Virus record (IMG/VR): IMGVR_UViG_3300045988_122265
Span: 1-40,571 of that record
Source: a virus
Direction: 5' to 3' (one strand)
Length of the DNA stretch: 40,571 nucleotides
Below the pieces are notes generated by a model. The model was not told the DNA's origin and did no database searches. It saw only the letters and a program-made list of their open reading frames with translations. The position numbers were made by a program, and so were the translations under genes. Below are positions 3,198 through 37,766 of the stretch, piece after piece (the stretch's first letter is position 1; every line of letters begins with the position of its first letter).

Positions 3198-3986
3198 ATG
3201 GCACGGCGCAGAATGATAGACCCTGCCATGTGGCAGAGCGAAGATTTCTCCCGTTGCTCCTTCCTCGCACGCCTAATTTTCGTCGGGCTAATATCACAGG
3301 CAGACGACGAGGGACGAGGCAAAGCATCACCAGCATACATCAAGTCGACTTTGTTCCCTTATGAAGATGGAATACGGCTCATCGACATAGAGAAAGCCCT
3401 ATCGGAGATAGGTCAGCACTTGTCCGTGACGTACTACTCCACGATTGACGGAAAGCAGTATTACAGCCTTGATAGCTGGATGGATTGGCAAACATTGGAT
3501 AAACCCAAGCCCTCAAAATTCCCCGCGCCGCCTGAAAAAATTGAAGTCGCCGACGAATCGCCGACGAATCCCAGACAAGTCGCCGACGAATCGCCGACGA
3601 ATCCCAGACAAGTCCCGCCGGAGGGTGCGCTAAGAGGAATAGGAAGTAGAAATAGAAATAATATACCCCCTATATCTCCTAACGGAGATATTGCCCCCCT
3701 TGAGGATGGCAGCCCTCGCAAGCATAAATACGGCGAATATAAAAACGTGTTGCTTACGGATGACGAGCTTGAAAAGCTAAAGGCAGAGTATGCAGACTAT
3801 CTTGACCGCATAGAACGGCTATCATCCTATATCGCAAGCACGGGCAAAGCATACAAGTCGCATTATGCGACCATCAAAAATTGGGCGCGAGCAGATGCGG
3901 AGAAAGGACGGAGCAATGGAGCAAAACAAGGAAGCAGCCCGCAGCGAAATGCGGAAGAAACTCCTCGATACGGAACTTGGCTGTAA
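3198..3986 (+). CDS. Phage replisome organizer / DnaD-like replication initiation protein
   Basis: N-terminus MARRRMIDPAMWQSEDF...LARLIFVGLISQADDEGRG is typical of the replisome-organizer N-domain. C-terminus (YKNVLLTDDELEKLK..) is DnaD-like. Followed by the loader ATPase. Confidence 0.75.
   Translation: MARRRMIDPAMWQSEDFSRCSFLARLIFVGLISQADDEGRGKASPAYIKSTLFPYEDGIRLIDIEKALSEIGQHLSVTYYSTIDGKQYYSLDSWMDWQTLDKPKPSKFPAPPEKIEVADESPTNPRQVADESPTNPRQVPPEGALRGIGSRNRNNIPPISPNGDIAPLEDGSPRKHKYGEYKNVLLTDDELEKLKAEYADYLDRIERLSSYIASTGKAYKSHYATIKNWARADAEKGRSNGAKQGSSPQRNAEETPRYGTWL
3546..3611. repeat. Perfect 33-bp tandem duplication (2 units, each containing CGCCGACGAATC twice) inside the replisome organizer gene; candidate origin iterons
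   Basis: gtcgccgacgaatcgccgacgaatcccagacaa appears twice back to back. It encodes VADESPTNPRQ twice. Confidence 0.9.
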
Positions 3987-9690: not shown

Positions 9691-10551
9691 ATGGACAGCT
9701 TTAAGGAGAAGATGGCGCTTGGCGACCAGATGGAAATGACGAGCGAATATGCCGCATTCGTTGAAAAATTCAAGCCGAAGAAAACAACGGATGATTGCTA
9801 CACGCCTGATAATGTATATGCCGCCGTCCTTGATTGGGCGGTTAAAGAATACGGCTTAGAGGGAGCGCGGATTATACGCCCGTTTTACCCCGGCGGGGAT
9901 TACAAGAAAGAGGATTACAGCGGGAATTGTGCGGTGATAGACAACTCGCCTTTTTCGATTTTGGCCGAGATTTGCCGCTGGTATAATCAGCGCGGCATAC
10001 GCTTTTTTCTTTTCGGGCCCGCCAAAACGATTTTTTCAGGCATCGGCTTGGACGGTATAAAATATGTCATATGCGGGCTATCGATAATGTACGATAACGG
10101 CGCGAGCGTAGATACAAGCTTTATTACAAACATGGGGCAATATAAAATTACGGTTGCTTCCGACCTATATGAAGCAATAAAAGCGGCCGATGATGAAAAC
10201 CGCAAGGAGGTTAAAAAGTCGCTGCCGAAATACGATTACTCCGACCATGTTCTGACGGCGGCAAGGATTCAACGCATTGCGAAATACGGGCAGTCATTAA
10301 GGATACGCGCCGAGGATTGCGCCTTTATCCGCGCGTTGGATAGTCAAAGGGACGCAGGAAAGACGGTTTTCGGCGGCGGCTTCCTTTTGTCAGAGAAAGC
10401 GGCAGCAGAAAAAGCGGCAGCAGAGAAAGCGGCAGCAGAGAAAGCAGCAGCGGAGAAAGCGGCGGCAGAAAAAGCGGCAGCAGAGAAAGCAGGGGCAAAA
10501 ATATGGGAGCTATCGGAGAGGGAAAAGGAAATAATAAGACGGCTTGGGTGA
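9691..10551 (+). CDS. Putative N6-adenine DNA methyltransferase with a C-terminal (EKAAA)x7 helical repeat
   Basis: TTDDCYTP and VIDNSPFSIL (variant of the NPPF motif IV), plus FFLFGP. Assignment is from memory of phage/ICE adenine-MTase motifs. Confidence 0.6.
   Translation: MDSFKEKMALGDQMEMTSEYAAFVEKFKPKKTTDDCYTPDNVYAAVLDWAVKEYGLEGARIIRPFYPGGDYKKEDYSGNCAVIDNSPFSILAEICRWYNQRGIRFFLFGPAKTIFSGIGLDGIKYVICGLSIMYDNGASVDTSFITNMGQYKITVASDLYEAIKAADDENRKEVKKSLPKYDYSDHVLTAARIQRIAKYGQSLRIRAEDCAFIRALDSQRDAGKTVFGGGFLLSEKAAAEKAAAEKAAAEKAAAEKAAAEKAAAEKAGAKIWELSEREKEIIRRLG
10393..10497. repeat. 15-bp tandem repeat x7 (GAGAAAGCGGCAGCA and variants), in frame, encoding EKAAA repeats
   Basis: Seven consecutive units were read directly. 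Variants sit at wobble and A/G positions. Confidence 0.9.
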
Positions 10552-11493: not shown

Positions 11494-12540
11494 ATGCGTA
11501 ATGAATCGGACACCACAAAAAAAGGAGCGCACGAAATTGTCCGCTTGCGCATGGACGAACTGACACTATACGCACAAAACGCAAAGCGACACCCAGCCAA
11601 ACAGGTTAGACAGATAGCCAACAGCATCGAACGATTTGGCGATAATGTCCCCATAGGGGTATGGGGCGAAAATAACGTTATAGTAGACGGGCACGGAAGA
11701 TACCTTGCAAAAAAGCTGCTGGGGCATGAGTATGCTGATTGTGTGCGGCTTGACCACATGACAGACGATGAGCGTAAAGCTTACACGCTGGCGGTTAACA
11801 AGGTGGCACTTAACAGCGGGCTTGATGACGGCATAGTACAGCTTGAACTGCAATCCATCGTCGGCATAGATATGGCCGACTTTGGCTTTAAGCCGCCAAA
11901 GGTTGACGTTGGTTATTATGGCGACGAGCGCGAGCGCACAAATGATGCTTATAACCTTAGCTACTTTCGCCCCAGCTTGGCGGCGGGCGATTGGCAAATA
12001 CCTAAGCTTGCACGGTGCGACTATATCCCCAAAGACCTGATTGGTTTTAATTACGCACTGACTTCACCACGAAAGAATGTAGGCGTGCACTTTTTTCTTG
12101 ACGACTATCAGTTTGAGCGCGTGTGGAATCAGCCCGAAAAATACGCGCGGATATTAGCGCAATATGATTGCGTGCTAACGCCTGATTTTTCGCTGTATAT
12201 GGATATGCCACGCTGTATGAAACTGTGGAATATCTATCGCAGCCGCCTTATTGGGCAAATATGGCAGGACGCGGGAATGAAGGTTATCCCAACAATGTCG
12301 TGGGCAGAAACCGAAACGTTTGAATTTTGCTTTGAGGGTATACCGCAGGGCGGCGCCGTGGCAGTCAGCACGGTTGGGGTACTGCGGGACAAAACCGCCC
12401 GCGAGATATGGCGGCAAGGAACGGATGAAATGATGCGGCGAATACAGCCGCAGACAGTAATATTGTATGGCAAAGCGATAGATTATGACTGGGGTAAAAC
12501 CAAAGTGGTAAGCTACCAGCCTAAAGCATTCGCACAATAA
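11494..12540 (+). CDS. ParB-like nuclease N-domain fused to a DUF4417-like C-domain
   Basis: ParBc-like: LTLYAQNAKRHP..Q...I..SI..FG...PI.V......IVDGHGR. DUF4417-like: VHFFLDDYQFERVW..PE.Y......YD.VLTPDFSLY.DMP...WN.YRSR. Confidence 0.65.
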   Translation: MRNESDTTKKGAHEIVRLRMDELTLYAQNAKRHPAKQVRQIANSIERFGDNVPIGVWGENNVIVDGHGRYLAKKLLGHEYADCVRLDHMTDDERKAYTLAVNKVALNSGLDDGIVQLELQSIVGIDMADFGFKPPKVDVGYYGDERERTNDAYNLSYFRPSLAAGDWQIPKLARCDYIPKDLIGFNYALTSPRKNVGVHFFLDDYQFERVWNQPEKYARILAQYDCVLTPDFSLYMDMPRCMKLWNIYRSRLIGQIWQDAGMKVIPTMSWAETETFEFCFEGIPQGGAVAVSTVGVLRDKTAREIWRQGTDEMMRRIQPQTVILYGKAIDYDWGKTKVVSYQPKAFAQ

Positions 12541-12917: not shown

Positions 12918-14240
12918 ATGAAAAAGACCGCCACCATACCGTGGCAGCCGTTGAGCGAGAAGCATAAGGCATACATTCTGCGCGGCATGAACGCCCGAAT
13001 GTGCGTAGCTGAGGGCGCAATCAGAAGCGGAAAGACCATCGACCATTGCATAATGGCGGCGGCATATTTAGAAACGTGTCCCGACAAGATACATTTAGCG
13101 TCAGGCAGCACCATAGCCAACGCCAAGCTAAATATTGGGGTGTGCAACGGCTTTGGCCTTGAAAACCTTTTCCGTGGGCGTTGCCGCTGGGGGAAGTACA
13201 AGGAGAATCAAGCGCTTTTCCTTGCCACTCAGACGGGGGAGAAGGTAGTCGTATTCACGGGCGGGAAGAACTCAGACAGTTATAAGCGGATACTGGGTAA
13301 CTCTTACGGCCTGTGGATAGCCACGGAAATAAACGAGCATTATGACAGTGACGATAGCCGCGAGAGCTTTGTAAAGGTTGCTAATGGCCGTCAGCTTGCA
13401 GCCGTGCGGCCTTATACGCTATGGGACATGAACCCTTGCAGCCCGCGCCACCCGATATACACGGAGTACATAGACAAGTACCGCGACAACGGCATGAAAG
13501 GCTATGTATACGAGCATTTCACAATACGGGATAACCTGTCGATAAGCGAGGAACGACAAGCGGAAATAACCGCGCAGTATGACCCGAAAACCGTATGGTA
13601 CAGGCGCGACATACTGGGCGAGAGATGCACGGCGGAGGGGCTTGTGTATCCGAGCTTTGCCGATACGCCCGAAAGGTATATCATCGATGCGCCACCCGCT
13701 ATCCAGTATGCCAATATCGGCGTGGACTTTGGCGGGACTAAATCCGGCCACGCCTTCACGCTAACGGGCTTCACACATGGGTATAAAGAAATTGTCGTAC
13801 TGGACGAATATTACCATAATAACGCCAAGGACGGTCGCTTCAGCCCCGACCAGTTGAACGCGGCCTTTATAGACTTTGTGCGTAGGGCACAGCAAAAATA
13901 CAAGGTTGCCATTGCCCGATGCGACAGCGCGGAGCAGACGCTCATCGAGGGCTTGCGCTCAGCCGCAAGCAGGGCGGGCGTGCCGATAGGCATTGAAAAC
14001 GCGATAAAGGGTGCAATAAATGACCGCATAGCCTTTTACAACTCGTTGATGGCACAGGAGCGGTTTAAGATTATGAGCCATTGCAAAGCGACAATAGAGG
14101 CGTTGCAAACGGCCATATATGACGCGGATAAGATAGACGATGAACGCCTCGACAACGGCACAACAAACATTGACAGCCTTGACAGCATGGAGTATTCGAC
14201 AGAGGTTGAACAATCGTCGATTATGTACATAAGGAGATAG
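12918..14240 (+). CDS. terL: Terminase large subunit
   Basis: Walker A GAIRSGKT. The size (440 aa) and the position between terS and portal fit. Nuclease-type acidic residues occur in the C-terminal half. Confidence 0.85.
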   Translation: MKKTATIPWQPLSEKHKAYILRGMNARMCVAEGAIRSGKTIDHCIMAAAYLETCPDKIHLASGSTIANAKLNIGVCNGFGLENLFRGRCRWGKYKENQALFLATQTGEKVVVFTGGKNSDSYKRILGNSYGLWIATEINEHYDSDDSRESFVKVANGRQLAAVRPYTLWDMNPCSPRHPIYTEYIDKYRDNGMKGYVYEHFTIRDNLSISEERQAEITAQYDPKTVWYRRDILGERCTAEGLVYPSFADTPERYIIDAPPAIQYANIGVDFGGTKSGHAFTLTGFTHGYKEIVVLDEYYHNNAKDGRFSPDQLNAAFIDFVRRAQQKYKVAIARCDSAEQTLIEGLRSAASRAGVPIGIENAIKGAINDRIAFYNSLMAQERFKIMSHCKATIEALQTAIYDADKIDDERLDNGTTNIDSLDSMEYSTEVEQSSIMYIRR

Positions 14241-31927: not shown

Positions 31928-32167
31928 GTGGTGGACAAAAATATTTTGCAGACCCTCTCCCGCGCGGAGTGGGAATGGATTATCTATCAGCGGATTTTCT
32001 GCGAGCGCGACCGCTGGCTTGTGGCGCGGCATCTGCTGGACGGTGTGCCGTATGACAGGCTTACAGCGGAGTATCAGGCGCGGTACACCGATGCGCCGCT
32101 GGAGTATGACCAAATTCGCCGCCGATACAAGGCGGCGGAAAGAACCCTTATAAAATATGCCCCCTGA
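31928..32167 (+). CDS. Small sigma-70 region-4-like HTH protein
   Basis: ERDRWLVARHLLDGVPYDRLTAEY...IRRRYKAAERTLIKY. GTG start with a weak RBS. The competing frame 31911..32153 has a better RBS but an Arg-rich, low-complexity product. Confidence 0.45.
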   Translation: MVDKNILQTLSRAEWEWIIYQRIFCERDRWLVARHLLDGVPYDRLTAEYQARYTDAPLEYDQIRRRYKAAERTLIKYAP

Positions 32168-32186
32168 TGGGGGCTTTTTTATTTTT
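32159..32186 (+). terminator. Intrinsic terminator
   Basis: GCCCCC-tgat-GGGGGC followed by TTTTTTATTTTT. Confidence 0.7.
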
Positions 32187-32193
32187 GGGGGGC

Positions 32194-32222
32194 TTGACAT
32201 ATGCCTGATGCTGAGGTATTTT
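32194..32222 (+). promoter_or_regulatory. Promoter of the repeat-spacer-repeat RNA (TTGACA-17 nt-TATTTT)
   Basis: TTGACA at 32194-32199 and TATTTT at 32217-32222. The predicted start falls at about 32229, the first base of repeat 1. Confidence 0.55.
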
Positions 32223-32228
32223 AATAAT

Positions 32229-32319
32229 GTCATCCGGCAACGGATGTGGATTGAAACATTTGATTTTTAGTTTTTGCGTCCGGGACGCATGTCACCCGCT
32301 TGCGGGTGTGGATTGAAAC
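32229..32319 (+). CRISPR. Mini-CRISPR unit: two 29-nt type I-C-like repeats (32229-32257, 32291-32319) flanking one 33-nt spacer (32258-32290); no cas genes in the window
   Basis: R1 is GTCATCCGGCAACGGATGTGGATTGAAAC and R2 is GTCACCCGCTTGCGGGTGTGGATTGAAAC. Both end in TGGATTGAAAC, the type I-C repeat 3' part (recalled). Both form a 6-bp stem plus tetraloop, with one compensatory base-pair change. Confidence 0.7.
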
Positions 32320-32352
32320 ATTATTTATCTTTGGTGGGGTTTCAAGCCTAAG

Positions 32353-32382
32353 AAAAAAGATGCGCCGCCGTGCATCTTTTTT
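32353..32382. terminator. Bidirectional intrinsic terminator (ends the mini-array RNA and the convergent minus-strand operon)
   Basis: AAAAAAGATGC-gccgccgt-GCATCTTTTTT. Confidence 0.7.
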
Positions 32383-32393
32383 CCTTTCTCCAG

Positions 32394-32663
32394 CTATTTC
32401 ACCCAACCCCAAAGATTTATCCAGCTTTTGGGACAGATTATCCGGTACATATAGGGCGGATTCCTCCAGTTTAGCCAGTCGAATATCCAGGCATCGCCCC
32501 ATTCGTCATCGTCCGCCAGTGCATCCAGCTCCGGTATCCGCTCGTCCGATACGCAGTACACCCCGTAGCCCTCGTCCGTGATGTAGTGGCGTAAAAATTC
32601 CATGTGGTACTTTTCGGCTAAGGCCATCAGCGTGGCCTTGGTTCTTGGCATTCTCGCTTCCAT
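32394..32663 (-). CDS. Small acidic, Trp-rich hypothetical protein (89 aa)
   Basis: AAAGGAGAG RBS before ATG (MEARMPRTK...). The product contains DALADDDEWGDAWIFDW. Confidence 0.6.
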   Translation of the reverse strand: MEARMPRTKATLMALAEKYHMEFLRHYITDEGYGVYCVSDERIPELDALADDDEWGDAWIFDWLNWRNPPYMYRIICPKSWINLWGWVK

Positions 32664-32709
32664 TTTTCTCTCCTTTGGGGCGGCATTGCCGCCCCTTGCC
32701 CTCTGCATC

Positions 32710-32997
32710 TTAGCGGTTCAGCGTTTCGGCGGCGTGCTTGGCTACTGCCGCATCGTAGGCGGATTCGCAGTCCTCATAGCTGTCAAAGTCTATATCCAGC
32801 TCATAGCACAGCGCCTCGACAAGATTCGGCTCCCACTCAGCATCGTCGTCTATGGCCGCTATAAGCTCATCTGCCGTAGCCGCGCGGACTTCGCTGCGGG
32901 GGGGGGAGTCTTTTCCCGCTACCCGCCACATGGGGATAAAATCTTCGCCATACTGCTCATAAGTCTCGGTGCCTTCAATCGCTTTGTAAACCTTCAT
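32710..32997 (-). CDS. Small, strongly acidic hypothetical protein (95 aa; about 24 D/E versus about 7 K/R)
   Basis: GAAGGGAG RBS. First gene downstream of consensus promoter copy A. Confidence 0.65.
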   Translation of the reverse strand: MKVYKAIEGTETYEQYGEDFIPMWRVAGKDSPPRSEVRAATADELIAAIDDDAEWEPNLVEALCYELDIDFDSYEDCESAYDAAVAKHAAETLNR

Positions 32998-33093
32998 TTT
33001 TAACTCCCTTCGGGCTTGTCGCCCTTGCTTTATCGTGGCTTTATTATACCATAGGTATATACCTACGTCAAGGGTTTTTTGCAGATTTTTTGA
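32997..33093 (-). repeat. About 97-bp promoter/operator/leader repeat, copy A
   Basis: Near-identical to 34343-34440: tttttaactcccttcggg...cttgctttatcgtggctttattataccataggtatatacctacgtcaagg..tttttgcagattttttga. Confidence 0.9.
33043..33071 (-). promoter_or_regulatory. Consensus promoter A (TTGACG-17 nt-TATAAT, extended TGg) with a 14-bp perfect palindrome TAGGTATATACCTA in the spacer
   Basis: On the minus strand the -35 is at 33066-33071, the palindrome at 33052-33065 and the -10 at 33043-33048. Confidence 0.7.
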
Positions 33094-33257
33094 TTTTTTA
33101 TGTCGGCGCGTATCAGGCCCTTGATATATCCTTGCGTGCTGGGCACATCGGCAAGACGGGCGAGGATGTCGCCATCTGTGCCGATGTTAAGCTTAAGGTA
33201 TATGCCCTTGGTGCTTTTTTTGTCGTAGCGGGCTTGTCGCTCAAATTCTTTTTTCAT
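33063..33257 (-). CDS. Ribbon-helix-helix (Arc/CopG-like) DNA-binding protein, 64 aa
   Basis: MKKEFERQARYDKKSTKGIYLKLNIGTDGDILARLADVPSTQGYIKGLIRADI has a beta-strand plus two helices pattern. Its 3' end overlaps promoter A. Confidence 0.55.
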   Translation of the reverse strand: MKKEFERQARYDKKSTKGIYLKLNIGTDGDILARLADVPSTQGYIKGLIRADIKNQKICKKPLT

Positions 33258-33900
33258 TTTTTTCCATCCACTCCATAAGCTTGCTGTACGATGGCCAGGG
33301 CTCCCACTCTGCTTCCATGTCCCTGATAGCCTCGGCATAGTCCTCGCTGCGCAAAATCTTTTCCATCGCCCTGCGTCCTGCGGCGCATTTATCTATATCG
33401 ACACCCCGCGTAAATTCTTCTGCAGTAAAAAATGCAGCTGCTCGGGGATATTTAGATTCTATCTCTGCCATTTTTACGGTAGGCTCTTTCGGCTTTTCAC
33501 ACTCGCAATGGTCTACAAATTGCCAATGCCTGATTGCGGCCTTGTAGTCGTCCCATGCTTCCCCTGCCGCACGCACCTCGTTCATGCCCTCTATAGCCGC
33601 GCTTGATACCTTCAGCGCGGCTATTTCGGCTTTTTCCCGTAGCAAATCCTTATGTACATTGACTACTATGGTATCGGTCTCGCTGTCATAGCTATCGGGC
33701 TTGGCTCTGCATGACCAGTAATCGGCGTCGCGCTCTGCGCAGCTCATGCGCACCGGTACAAAATCTCCGCTTGCGCACATCCTACCCCAGCAATCGGGGC
33801 AGAATGTGCGGCCTATCAAGTCGCGCATGTGGTCGCGGTCGTCCATCGTGCAATCCACTGTAGTGGTATGCCCACAGGCATATTCCATTTCGTATTTCAT
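33241..33900 (-). CDS. Hypothetical protein with an N-terminal CGH...CPxC zinc ribbon (219 aa)
   Basis: AAAAGGAGAA RBS. MKYEMEYACGHTTTVDC....FCPDCW is paralogous to the N-terminus of the upstream gene. Confidence 0.65.
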   Translation of the reverse strand: MKYEMEYACGHTTTVDCTMDDRDHMRDLIGRTFCPDCWGRMCASGDFVPVRMSCAERDADYWSCRAKPDSYDSETDTIVVNVHKDLLREKAEIAALKVSSAAIEGMNEVRAAGEAWDDYKAAIRHWQFVDHCECEKPKEPTVKMAEIESKYPRAAAFFTAEEFTRGVDIDKCAAGRRAMEKILRSEDYAEAIRDMEAEWEPWPSYSKLMEWMEKNEKRI

Positions 33901-33919
33901 GGCGTTCTCCTTTTCTTTT

Positions 33920-34339
33920 TTATTTTGTTGCATTATAAGTGTTGATTACCTCGCGGCCCCACTCGCCGCGCAATGACCTGTCACGATTATCTATCCAAAA
34001 TTTTGCCGTGGTATAGGTCTGTATAATCCATGCGATGCAGCGCATTCCGTTTTCGTTGGCGCCAACGGCCATTATTTCATCTATCTTTTCCTTGCGGATT
34101 GCGTTTGCCCATGCGACCTGCTTCGGGGTTCCGCTCAGTTCGGGCCACTGTTTTTCCTTGCTTTCCTGCGCCGCCTGTGCGTCAATCGCCTCGCGTTCTG
34201 CCTGCTTGCGGGCCTTGTAGCATTCGGGGCATTCGCCGTGCGTCTCATACCAGCTGATTTTGCGCTCGCGCTCTTTACCAGGCCCAAACAGCTCCACAGT
34301 TGCGGTGTGACCGCAAGAAAATGTTACATCGTACTTCAT
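33920..34339 (-). CDS. Hypothetical protein with an N-terminal CGH...CPxC zinc ribbon (139 aa)
   Basis: MKYDVTFSCGHTATVELFGPGKERERKISWYETHGECPECY. GAAGGGAG RBS. First gene downstream of promoter copy B. Confidence 0.65.
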   Translation of the reverse strand: MKYDVTFSCGHTATVELFGPGKERERKISWYETHGECPECYKARKQAEREAIDAQAAQESKEKQWPELSGTPKQVAWANAIRKEKIDEIMAVGANENGMRCIAWIIQTYTTAKFWIDNRDRSLRGEWGREVINTYNATK

Positions 34340-36521: not shown

Positions 36522-36541
36522 TTTCACTTAAAATTTCACTT
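36522..36541 (+). repeat. Two direct TTTCACTT repeats (36522-36529, 36534-36541); candidate integrase arm-type sites, left arm of attP
   Basis: Read directly. The same octamer pair recurs at 36721-36740. Confidence 0.6.
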
Positions 36542-36578
36542 TTACGCTAAAAAACTTAGAGAATTAGCCACTTCAAAA

Positions 36579-36720: not shown

Positions 36721-36740
36721 TTTCACTTTTTATTTCACTT
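36721..36740 (+). repeat. Two direct TTTCACTT repeats (36721-36728, 36733-36740); candidate arm-type sites, right arm of attP
   Basis: Same orientation and 12-bp periodicity as the left pair. Confidence 0.6.
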
Positions 36741-37766
36741 TTTTGGGGTAAAATTTTTTGTAACATCGTCAAAATAGCTGTCTATAAGCGCATCAACGTT
36801 TTTGCGCTCCCGGCTGAACGTTTCCTGATACACGCGCTTCATCGTGGTGTCTGTTTTCCAGCCGCCCCGCTCCATTGCATACTTGTCGGGGACGTTAAGT
36901 TGAAGCATTACAGATGCGTTTACATGGCGTAGGTCGTGGAATGTGATATCAACATCGGCTTTTGCACAGAGCCGCCTAAACCGCCCACGGATTGATTCTC
37001 CGGACGCGGTAATAATATATCCGTCCCCATCCTGCCACGCGGGCGTGTCCTCTATCAGGCGCATTATATACGGCGGCACGGCAAGGGCGCGGTTGCGGTC
37101 GTATTCCTTCCCCGCCGCCTTTGCTAACGGCATACCGCGCACATCAACGACAACCTGATTTATAGTCATAATGCCGTTGTTTATATCACAAACCCGAATA
37201 CCGCGAACTTCCGACATGGTAAAGGATAGCCACATGGCAAGCATACACGGCAGTTCTATGTCCGTCCCGCGTATGATGCTGTAAATCTCCTGCGGCTCGG
37301 GCAGCGTCCGTATGCGCTTACGCTTTGCGGGTATAGTGGGCGAAAAATGCAAGTCATATTGCGCCATAGCAGCAGAAAAAAGGCCGCGCACGTTTGCCAT
37401 TGTTTTTGGGGTAGGTGTAGTGCCTTGCCGCGTTATCCGCTTTGATTCCGCGTTAAATGCGCTCTGGACAACAAGCTCATTCAAGCTTGACAGCGGCACA
37501 TCCATAAGCGATTGTAAGTAATTGCGCCTTATTTTTTCATATCCCTCGATTGTTGTTGGGGATAGAACGCCGTCTTTTGATGTTATATAAGCGTCTATGG
37601 CCTTACCGACCGTCACACGGCCTACCTCGCGCTTGTGCTGCATTTGCATTTCGAGTGCCGCGTACTCCGCTTCGCGCTTAGTATCACGTGTTATGCTATG
37701 CGTTTTGCCGTCATAGTAGACCTGCACGCGCCATTTGCCAGATGCCGTTTTTTTTGCAGTTGCCAT
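36735..37766 (-). CDS. int: Tyrosine integrase
   Basis: N-terminal SAM-like KWRVQVYYDGK. Catalytic region ...FHDLRH...GGWKTDTTMKRVY. Adjacent to the attP-like tRNA fragment. Confidence 0.9.
   Translation of the reverse strand: MATAKKTASGKWRVQVYYDGKTHSITRDTKREAEYAALEMQMQHKREVGRVTVGKAIDAYITSKDGVLSPTTIEGYEKIRRNYLQSLMDVPLSSLNELVVQSAFNAESKRITRQGTTPTPKTMANVRGLFSAAMAQYDLHFSPTIPAKRKRIRTLPEPQEIYSIIRGTDIELPCMLAMWLSFTMSEVRGIRVCDINNGIMTINQVVVDVRGMPLAKAAGKEYDRNRALAVPPYIMRLIEDTPAWQDGDGYIITASGESIRGRFRRLCAKADVDITFHDLRHVNASVMLQLNVPDKYAMERGGWKTDTTMKRVYQETFSRERKNVDALIDSYFDDVTKNFTPKK

Follow-up and report, generated by a model that had tools for sequence, protein, structure and literature searches.

A tandem two-repeat cassette resembling type I-C CRISPR repeats in a gut siphovirus: a candidate RNA anti-CRISPR

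RNA anti-CRISPRs (Racrs) are phage-encoded non-coding mimics of CRISPR repeats, and experimental validation of those acting on type I-C came in 2023 (Camara-Wilpert et al. 2023, PMC10651486). One of them, RacrIC1 from a prophage of Bifidobacterium pseudocatenulatum, is located 11 nt downstream of an AcrIC5 homologue and is by itself able to inhibit type I-C (PMC10651486). Two other kinds of virus-borne repeat unit have been reported, namely mini-CRISPR arrays (Medvedeva et al. 2019, PMC6858448) and Cracr arrays, which are viral regulatory RNAs resembling CRISPR RNA (crRNA) and derived from host CreR/CreA mini-arrays (Liu et al., 10.1101/2024.10.29.618823). In the Cracr arrays co-encoded units target variants of the same system and the pseudo-spacers have matches in host cas promoters; crRNA-like arrays of two units, directed against type I-C, have already been described (10.1101/2024.10.29.618823). 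The genuine type I-C repeat is processed by Cas5c/Cas5d (Nam et al. 2012; Garside et al. 2012; cited in PMC10651486). Here we analyse a cassette which runs from promoter to terminator and contains two repeats of 29 nt in type I-C style (R1 and R2), at positions 32194-32382 (+ strand) of the IMG/VR virus record IMGVR_UViG_3300045988_122265. The window, which means the whole analysed stretch of 40,571 nt, comes from a temperate siphovirus of a human gut metagenome and carries an integrase gene and CI-like repressor genes but no cas genes. In our judgement there is about an even chance that the cassette is a gene for a ~155-nt non-coding RNA which serves as a tandem two-repeat RNA anti-CRISPR of the Racr type against type I-C. 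Since such cassettes have had precedents since 2023, it is a new example and not a new principle.

The cassette is housed in a gap of 226 nt between called genes (32168-32393), in which no gene was called, and it sits downstream of the endolysin and holin genes. Its parts and the terminator preceding it are as follows.
32159-32184, + strand: terminator of the rightward lysis / 79-aa operon, GCCCCC-TGAT-GGGGGC with 6 G-C pairs, then the T-run TTTTTTATTT
32194-32222, + strand: sigma-70-type promoter TTGACA-17-TATTTT, 10/12 matches in the promoter scan
32229-32257, + strand: repeat mimic R1, GTCATCCGGCAACGGATGTGGATTGAAAC, made of GT, then a hairpin, then the handle
32258-32290, + strand: pseudo-spacer S1, 33 nt, made of the T-rich 5' part ATTTGATTTTTAG, a T-run and a palindrome
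32291-32319, + strand: repeat mimic R2, GTCACCCGCTTGCGGGTGTGGATTGAAAC, the most conserved element of the cassette
32320-32352, + strand: tail S2, 33 nt, between R2 and the terminator
32320-32338, + strand: variable 5' part of S2, a predicted loop, with at least 6 alleles and one 6-nt indel
32339-32348, + strand: anti-handle GTTTCAAGCC, complementary to the R2 handle GGATTGAAAC at 9/10 positions
32353-32382, both strands: bidirectional intrinsic terminator, A6 + GATGCGC-CGCC-GTGCATC + T6, which folds as a 14-bp helix

An original prediction made from the bare sequence had described an independent transcription cassette without cas genes, consisting of a promoter, a first repeat, a 33-nt spacer, a second repeat and a bidirectional terminator 33 nt after it, and every one of these parts was recovered at the position given for it. 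The preceding terminator (32159-32184) shields the cassette from upstream transcription, and the predicted transcription start falls at about the first base of R1. The 10/12 promoter match is unremarkable when taken alone, with 2 promoter-grade matches in the window against 1.8 expected in shuffles. About 30 further loci with the cassette were found among the matches listed from IMG/VR and metagenomes, and the promoter is kept in every one of these relatives, including the copies standing in another genomic context (L006, L010, L380 and L382). Its -35 box is the left edge of the mobile cassette. The right boundary is formed by the bidirectional terminator, which serves the convergent 89-aa gene too, is conserved across the family with one compensatory pair, and was seen by folding although the pattern scanner did not pick it up. 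A conserved reading frame within the cassette is ruled out, because the frame is not kept across the family, where indels of 1, 2, 6 and 62 nt occur. The RNA is predicted to fold into a chain of five hairpins (z = -3.3 vs shuffles).

R1 and R2 are identical at 23 of 29 positions (79%) and lie 62 nt apart from start to start. In R1 the stem CATCCG / CGGATG (32231-32246) closes a GCAA loop and is followed by the 11-nt handle TGGATTGAAAC (32247-32257), which reads AGGATTGAAAT in most relatives. In R2 the stem CACCCG / CGGGTG (32293-32308) closes a CTTG loop and is followed by the canonical handle TGGATTGAAAC (32309-32319). Exactly as had been claimed, the six differences between the copies are the four tetraloop bases and one compensatory change from a T-A to a C-G pair. 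Within the 40.6-kb window the 12-mer GTGGATTGAAAC occurs only at the ends of R1 and R2.

Genuine arrays were obtained by scanning IMG/VR for two handles at array-like spacing, and many were found, with 6-124 copies and a spacing of 64-67 nt. The repeats sampled from them are 31-36 nt long and consist of GT, a 6-8-bp stem, a short loop (mostly 4-6 nt), the returning stem and TGGATTGAAAC; their spacers are 32-35 nt long, a range that includes the 33 nt of the predicted spacer. R1 and R2 both show the features of this class, with a GT(C) start and a GC-rich hairpin abutting an 11-nt handle of the form (U/C)GGAUUGAAA(C/U). The subtype label of the class is taken from the Racr paper, where repeats ending in GTGGATTGAAAT/C are labelled type I-C in its supplementary table (PMC10651486). 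A covariance model was built from 18 distinct genuine array repeats, leaving out the loci which had been fetched via an R2-like stem. Over the whole window and both strands it scored R2 at 31.9 bits (E 1.8e-6) and R1 at 25.7 bits (E 9.2e-5), while the next-best match reached only 8.6 bits, so that R1 and R2 were the sole sites in 81 kb of strand. The share of the handle in these scores is partly circular because the training arrays were fetched with the handle sequence as bait, whereas the share of the GT-stem-loop-stem part is not. The Rfam model CRISPR-DR9 likewise matched both repeats over their full length, at scores below the gathering threshold (24.9 bits for R2 and 18.3 bits for R1, vs 45). 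With these matches the type I-C repeat architecture proposed earlier held up. R2 corresponds to a 32-nt array repeat, GTCACCCGCTTCACGCGGGTGTGGATTGAAAC, minus 3 nt. This longer repeat builds large arrays in Phycisphaeraceae metagenome-assembled genomes (MAGs; L122, L128 and L130), and on a viral contig with a GC content of 0.56 (L119:8763-9100) it forms a three-repeat mini-array with two dissimilar, real-looking spacers.

Selection on the cassette was gauged from 15 distinct loci with a common context, compared by mean pairwise difference, and the third-codon positions of three neighbouring genes, at 0.13-0.21, served as the neutral yardstick. The R2 handle is invariant in the 15 loci (0.000). 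Next come the R2 hairpin (0.031), the R1 hairpin (0.032), the T-run and palindrome of S1 (0.033), the promoter (0.048), the terminator (0.054), the R1 handle (0.074), the 5' part of S1 (0.075) and the anti-handle (0.138), and only the 11-17 nt directly after the R2 handle reach 0.46 (0.30 when expressed as normalised edit distance). Purifying selection acts on the whole cassette apart from these 11-17 nt, which make up the loop of a helix predicted between the R2 handle and the anti-handle in both single-sequence and consensus folds. The palindrome of S1, TGCGTCCGGGACGCA (32275-32289; the self-complementary 3' half is also given as TGCGTCYGGGACGCA), is kept as a 6-7-bp hairpin, of which 6 bp are invariant in the 11 sequences of the consensus fold.

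The modelled handle:anti-handle helix is suggestive. The anti-handle is kept in two-repeat and single-repeat variants alike, and its substitutions fall at the one mismatched position or yield U-G pairs. The duplex was calculated at -8.6 kcal/mol, a value equalled by 1.9% of 1007 real array spacers; overall, 1.5-10% of these spacers pair equally well with their own handle, which makes the pairing modestly unusual. Outside the cassette family the handle...anti-handle pattern was found only as coincidences in coding sequence. Covariation within the family consists only of one-sided, pair-preserving changes and is uninformative because the family is too shallow; the genuine compensatory signal is that between the paralogues R1 and R2.

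All two-repeat relatives carry one and the same S1, altered only by point changes. The 5' part of S1, ATTTGATTTTTAG, is similar to the sequence with which S2 opens in relatives, ATTTGAYTTTAGG, with ATTTGAYTTT(T)AG as the common form, and this likeness points to a 62-nt tandem duplication instead of spacer acquisition. S1 and S2 are thus inherited and not acquired spacers. The marks of an array, which are near-identical repeats and unrelated acquired spacers matching foreign DNA, are not seen in the cassette. The original prediction had proposed a search for protospacers with a 5'-TTC protospacer-adjacent motif (PAM); neither S1 nor S2 was matched by a protospacer in the window, in 50,697 GenBank phages, in 72,556 plasmids or among the IMG/VR matches listed. 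For S2 the IMG/VR scan gave no protospacer, and the S1-specific 3' half matched only the cassette family there. A pattern of T-rich PAM plus S1 seed yielded, among the IMG/VR matches listed, only chance matches in AT-rich phages, and the TTC-plus-guide matches to S1 and S2 in 2.76 Mb of fetched loci were T-rich and at chance level. The metagenome matches listed were copies of the family and ordinary arrays whose spacer happens to begin with ATTTRAYTTT; none of the 120 was a CreR-like element, although the power of this search is low without the host cas locus. Solitary type I-C-like repeats in Planctomycetota genomes were considered as CreR models and rejected, as they sit between unrelated genes. 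These host-borne repeats, CACCCG...CGGGTGTGGATTGAAAC, were seen on four Planctomycetota MAG contigs (L126, L127, L129 and L132), where they stand between unrelated housekeeping-type genes and far from any array in the fetched stretch.

The cassette is a module which moves as a unit between phage contexts. In L006, L010, L380 and L382, phages with a different structural module, only 32192-32388 of the window is held in common, and the homology with L006 and L010 stops at 32388. In GenBank MT835524 (L001), window positions 32205-32676, comprising the cassette and the 89-aa gene, are precisely absent. The 89-aa gene and the cassette form a variable block, both being missing in MT835524 and the 89-aa gene alone in the L006 type, and similar T/C-rich sequences follow the terminator and precede the next gene at the breakpoints. 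In two loci with a cassette otherwise identical to that of the window (L007:~12150-12229 and L290:~13905-13947), the terminator loop is broken after GATGCACCGC by a sequence with a promoter-like TTAGACA...TATAAT and a hairpin CACCCCATTTGTTAG / CTAACAAGTGGGGTG, which may mark an insertion or a recombination junction.

Single-repeat variants occupy the same locus, with promoter and terminator unchanged and intact. In five of them (L268, L280, L389, L412 and L414) R1 is joined to the S2 tail inside the common handle/ATTTGA segment. In three others (L377, L378 and L403) a chimeric hairpin is made of the 5' arm of R1 and the 3' arm of R2, paired through a T.G wobble, and L337 is a more divergent single-repeat member. 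The R1 x R2 junctions indicate that recombination removed one unit at least twice, and the solitary-repeat genes left by it persist. Two-, one- and no-repeat alleles are found in otherwise near-identical phages, with or without AcrIC5.

On the other side of the terminator a convergent accessory operon faces the cassette, with the following genes.
32394-34339, - strand: the operon, encoding proteins of 139, 219, 64, 95 and 89 aa (gene calls)
33920-34339, - strand: 139-aa gene at the operon head, AcrIF23/AcrIE7-like, ~1.5 kb from the cassette
33241-33900, - strand: 219-aa gene, its product with an N-terminus paralogous to that of the 139-aa protein (MKYxxxxxCGHTxTV...)
32394-32663, - strand: 89-aa gene; its product is acidic and rich in W, and none of the libraries searched gave a homologue

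The 139-aa protein matches the solved AcrIF23 structure 7fia_A (E 1.8e-4) and, more weakly, AcrIE7, and a motif LsGTxKQxxWAxxIRxEK...KFWIdNR is common to all three. AcrIF23 has been shown to block Cas2/3 (PMC9270243) and AcrIE7 to bind the single strand of the R-loop (PMC12002350). From their sequences, the 139-aa and 219-aa proteins are candidate anti-CRISPRs; no family matches were obtained for the other four operon proteins (219, 64, 95 and 89 aa). Sister phages with an identical integrase protein have a mosaic accessory region between the integrase and lysis genes. In two of them (L378 and L383) the converging operon is headed by a 60-aa AcrIC5 (PF22147, E ~5e-23, 81 bits vs a cutoff of 27, full length), which lies within ~1.4 kb of a single-repeat unit in L378 and stands without the unit in L383, from which the cassette is absent. 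AcrIC5 is absent from the two-repeat loci. Among seven integrase-anchored relatives which had not been chosen for the unit and in which the region was readable, six carry the unit and two AcrIC5, and all seven carry at least one of both. Given AcrIC5 in the sisters and the AcrIF23-like gene, these phages evidently confront type I, and specifically type I-C, CRISPR-Cas. Of the acr-aca-like operon that had been proposed next to the cassette, the anti-CRISPR (acr) half was borne out, by AcrIC5 in the sisters and by the AcrIF23/AcrIE7-like 139-aa gene, and the anti-CRISPR-associated (Aca) regulator was not, as no Aca-type DNA-binding domain was detected in the five operon proteins of the window. 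The 64-aa protein, considered as a possible Aca, is not similar to a weakly ribbon-helix-helix-like protein of L383.

The closest cultured relatives of the phage are Clostridioides difficile siphophages, with 45% terminase identity. The endolysin and integrase genes were found on phage-sized metagenome contigs only, the window has no tRNA gene, and 1,915 spacers of the fetched arrays gave no real match to the phage family. Scanning the genome collection with the R2 stem pattern returned arrays in Phycisphaerae, Brevibacillus, Metarhizobium and similar taxa only. Just downstream of the integrase gene (36735-37766, - strand) there are direct repeats TTTCACTTAAAATTTCACTTTT / TTTCACTTTTTATTTCACTTTT at 36522-36543 and 36721-36742, which from their sequence and position are plausibly arm-type integrase binding sites of the phage attachment site (attP). 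If so, the cassette would lie ~4 kb from one prophage end, a usual spot for accessory genes. Elsewhere in the window, a 15-nt tandem repeat GAGAAAGCGGCAGCA of ~7-8 copies lies within an open reading frame (10378-10512), and a series of 11-nt repeats, AAGTCGCCGAC / GAATCGCCGAC / GAATCCCAGAC, lies in the early/replication region (3544-3620) and may represent iterons.

How the cassette would act as an RNA anti-CRISPR of the Racr type can be outlined as follows. The RNA would be highly structured and would be produced in excess during infection or lysogeny, and the host Cas5c, the repeat-binding endonuclease of type I-C, and Cas7 would bind or cleave the mimics. Cas proteins would then assemble on an RNA that guides nothing, fewer working Cascade complexes would be loaded with real host crRNAs, and interference against the phage would be weakened. 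The divergence of the R1 and R2 hairpins plausibly curbs loss through direct-repeat recombination, though such loss has occurred at least twice. The free loop after the R2 handle fits a decoy with a structural loop, since a guide depending on its seed would not leave the seed free. Of the two functions suggested by the original prediction, a decoy of this kind is the one which the evidence favours.

Several points weigh against this decoy. With 29 nt, a 6-bp stem and a 4-nt loop, R1 and R2 are shorter than every array repeat sampled (31-36 nt), and in most relatives the R1 handle begins with A, and not T/C, beside the expected cleavage site. The conservation of S1, palindrome included, and of the anti-handle is unexplained by a pure decoy, and Cas proteins might reach the handle less easily once it is paired with the anti-handle. 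Among 185,579 species genomes no prophage copy turned up, and a host with type I-C is indicated only indirectly, by AcrIC5 in the sister phages. Transcription, binding or cleavage by Cas5c, and inhibition are all steps that we infer.

The main rival is a regulatory crRNA mimic of the Cracr type, whose pseudo-spacers would redirect the host type I-C Cascade to the promoter of cas genes (or of a CRISPR-guarding toxin) and so shut off cas expression, while the RNA also competes with host crRNAs. We regard this as possible, though a good deal less probable than the decoy. The architecture fits the described Cracr arrays, including nine two-spacer arrays aimed at type I-C (10.1101/2024.10.29.618823), and such RNAs often adjoin acr genes, as the cassette does. 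The similar 5' part shared by S1 and S2, ATTTGAYTTT(T)AG, suits it as well, and so does the conservation of S1 beyond the neutral level (0.075 and 0.033 vs 0.13-0.21), which a pure decoy would not need. A target is missing, however, as the TTC-plus-guide matches stayed at chance level both in the 2.76 Mb of fetched loci and among the IMG/VR matches listed, and the low-powered search of the 120 metagenome matches listed gave no host CreR-like counterpart. Furthermore, the seed region of S2, which is the tail in every variant, is the least constrained part of the cassette, and a guide would not usually contain a self-complementary hairpin like the one formed by the 3' half of S1.

Both a mini-array targeting competitors and a small RNA (sRNA) unrelated to CRISPR are less likely than either the Racr or the Cracr interpretation. 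The mini-array was the other function suggested originally, a one-spacer array excluding a competing phage: S1, and perhaps S2, would be a real spacer used by the host Cascade and Cas3 for superinfection exclusion. The repeat-spacer-repeat layout, with a 33-nt spacer inside the 32-35 nt of the genuine arrays sampled, is what such an array would show; virus-borne mini-arrays are known (PMC6858448), and the data analysed here include phage mini-arrays that have canonical repeats and look real, such as L119 and L046. We nevertheless consider it very unlikely. S1 is inherited, its 5' part is like S2 in a way that points to duplication and not acquisition, its 3' half is a conserved palindrome, and no protospacer for S1 or S2 turned up in the window, the GenBank phages, the plasmids or the IMG/VR matches listed. 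Single-repeat derivatives without S1 persist with promoter and terminator intact, and the two repeats differ at 6 of 29 positions, unlike array repeats. Alternatively, the cassette could be an sRNA or structured element unrelated to CRISPR, for instance one that regulates the convergent 89-aa gene, acts as an RNA antitoxin or confers stability, with a type I-C likeness that is coincidental or left by a decaying captured array. The predicted five-hairpin chain (z = -3.3 vs shuffles) would agree with it, the conserved palindrome and anti-handle suggest constraints beyond repeat mimicry, and the Rfam matches are below the gathering threshold. This explanation appears unlikely to us, because the model of genuine repeats gave two independent full-length matches and no other in 81 kb of searched strand, the 11-nt handle is invariant while the hairpin changes by compensation, and AcrIC5 and AcrIF23-like genes stand in the same accessory region. 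A decaying remnant would not be expected to show purifying selection or to keep its promoter and terminator intact.

A further mode concerns the tail. Its anti-repeat pairing with the type I-C 5' handle might constitute a new mode of RNA anti-CRISPR, antisense or "locked substrate", and we hold this to be quite unlikely. In cis, the R2 handle would be locked and the RNA would become an uncleavable Cas5c trap; in trans, the anti-handle would pair with the handle of every host pre-crRNA repeat and block processing. Such a mode would be loosely analogous to the anti-repeat of the trans-activating CRISPR RNA (tracrRNA), here directed at the host. Relatedly, the cassette RNA might be a scaffold or guide for type IV-like Cas effector genes carried by a sister phage. 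In L377 (1-2186), which has the identical integrase and a single-repeat unit, a type IV-like Cas effector cluster was observed on the phage: precomputed Pfam annotations of Csf3 (PF27782) and Csf1 (PF27781) flank a 295-aa RAMP protein and a 144-aa protein, and on re-check the RAMP match was confirmed (PF03787, E 3e-5).

Analogous cassettes were observed on unrelated viral contigs (L051:3078-3350, L113:1187-1451, L032:5041-5313, L084:1269-1538 and L087:6365-6633), each with a promoter, 2-3 type I-C-style repeats bearing the same handle, and then a terminator. In the clearest three (L051, L113 and L032) the hairpins are diverged and the short "spacers" are alike within a cassette. L051 has three different stems, its spacers all begin with TAAGRYARTA, and in its last tail, too, 7 nt are complementary to the handle. 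A general class of tandem diverged-repeat mimics may exist.

Type I-C is one of the commonest CRISPR types. If the decoy function of the cassette is confirmed, a widespread family of human gut phages would join the short list of type I-C RNA anti-CRISPRs. The natural allele series, with two, one or no repeats and with or without AcrIC5, would be useful for dissecting the mechanism, and the selection map marks the nucleotides that matter, which are those of the handle, the hairpins, the palindrome and the anti-handle, and not those of the loop. Compact cassettes of this kind could also provide type I-C editing tools with a genetically encoded off-switch.

Compared with the canonical type I-C (Dvulg) repeat cut by Cas5c/Cas5d, the mimics have the same order of GT, GC-rich stem, short loop and stem abutting TGGATTGAAAC, and their spacing fits a 33-nt spacer; the cassette differs in its 29-nt repeats, in having only two non-identical copies, and in the absence of a leader and of cas genes. 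With the virus-borne mini-arrays it shares one or two repeat-spacer units on a virus without cas genes, dependent on host Cas proteins. Such mini-arrays were reportedly also treated by Faure et al. in 2019. The mini-arrays have acquired spacers matching competing viruses and repeats near-identical to those of the host, whereas the cassette has paralogous pseudo-spacers for which no target was found, and diverged repeats. The Cracr arrays come closer, with a degenerate repeat, a pseudo-spacer and a degenerate repeat on phages, often two per unit and often beside acr genes, and with related pseudo-spacers within one array. They are defined by at least 9 PAM-proximal nt in common with a CreR/CreA spacer of the host, or by a match in the promoter of cas or toxin genes; for the cassette, the low-powered search of the fetched loci and of the IMG/VR and metagenome matches listed gave nothing above chance level, and the seed region of the universal tail is the least constrained segment of the cassette.

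The Racrs were searched for as solitary repeats, and SRUFinder excludes any repeat that has another match, full or partial, within 100 bp of it (PMC10651486). The window copy, with its two repeats 62 nt apart, is not solitary by this rule, and only L268, L280, L337, L377, L378, L389, L403, L412 and L414 are; as two-repeat units were set aside by that survey, the class has probably been under-counted. The family hairpins do not appear in the examined portion of the Racr tables (PMC10651486). The cassette also departs from the Racrs in other respects. RacrIC1 is transcribed together with the acr gene, while the cassette has a promoter to itself; its conserved tail anti-handle and S1 palindrome are not described features of Racrs; and the array repeats collected exceed those of the cassette by 3 nt. 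The likeness is nevertheless extensive. Like RacrIC1, the cassette is a phage-encoded, non-coding and cas-free repeat mimic with a conserved hairpin and handle, adjoining genes for anti-CRISPR proteins, and the converging operon of its family includes AcrIC5 itself. It is intergenic on a virus, outside any CRISPR-cas locus, and co-localises with acr genes, which is a frequent though not obligatory feature of Racrs, and the single-repeat variants of the family have the exact layout of a solitary repeat unit.

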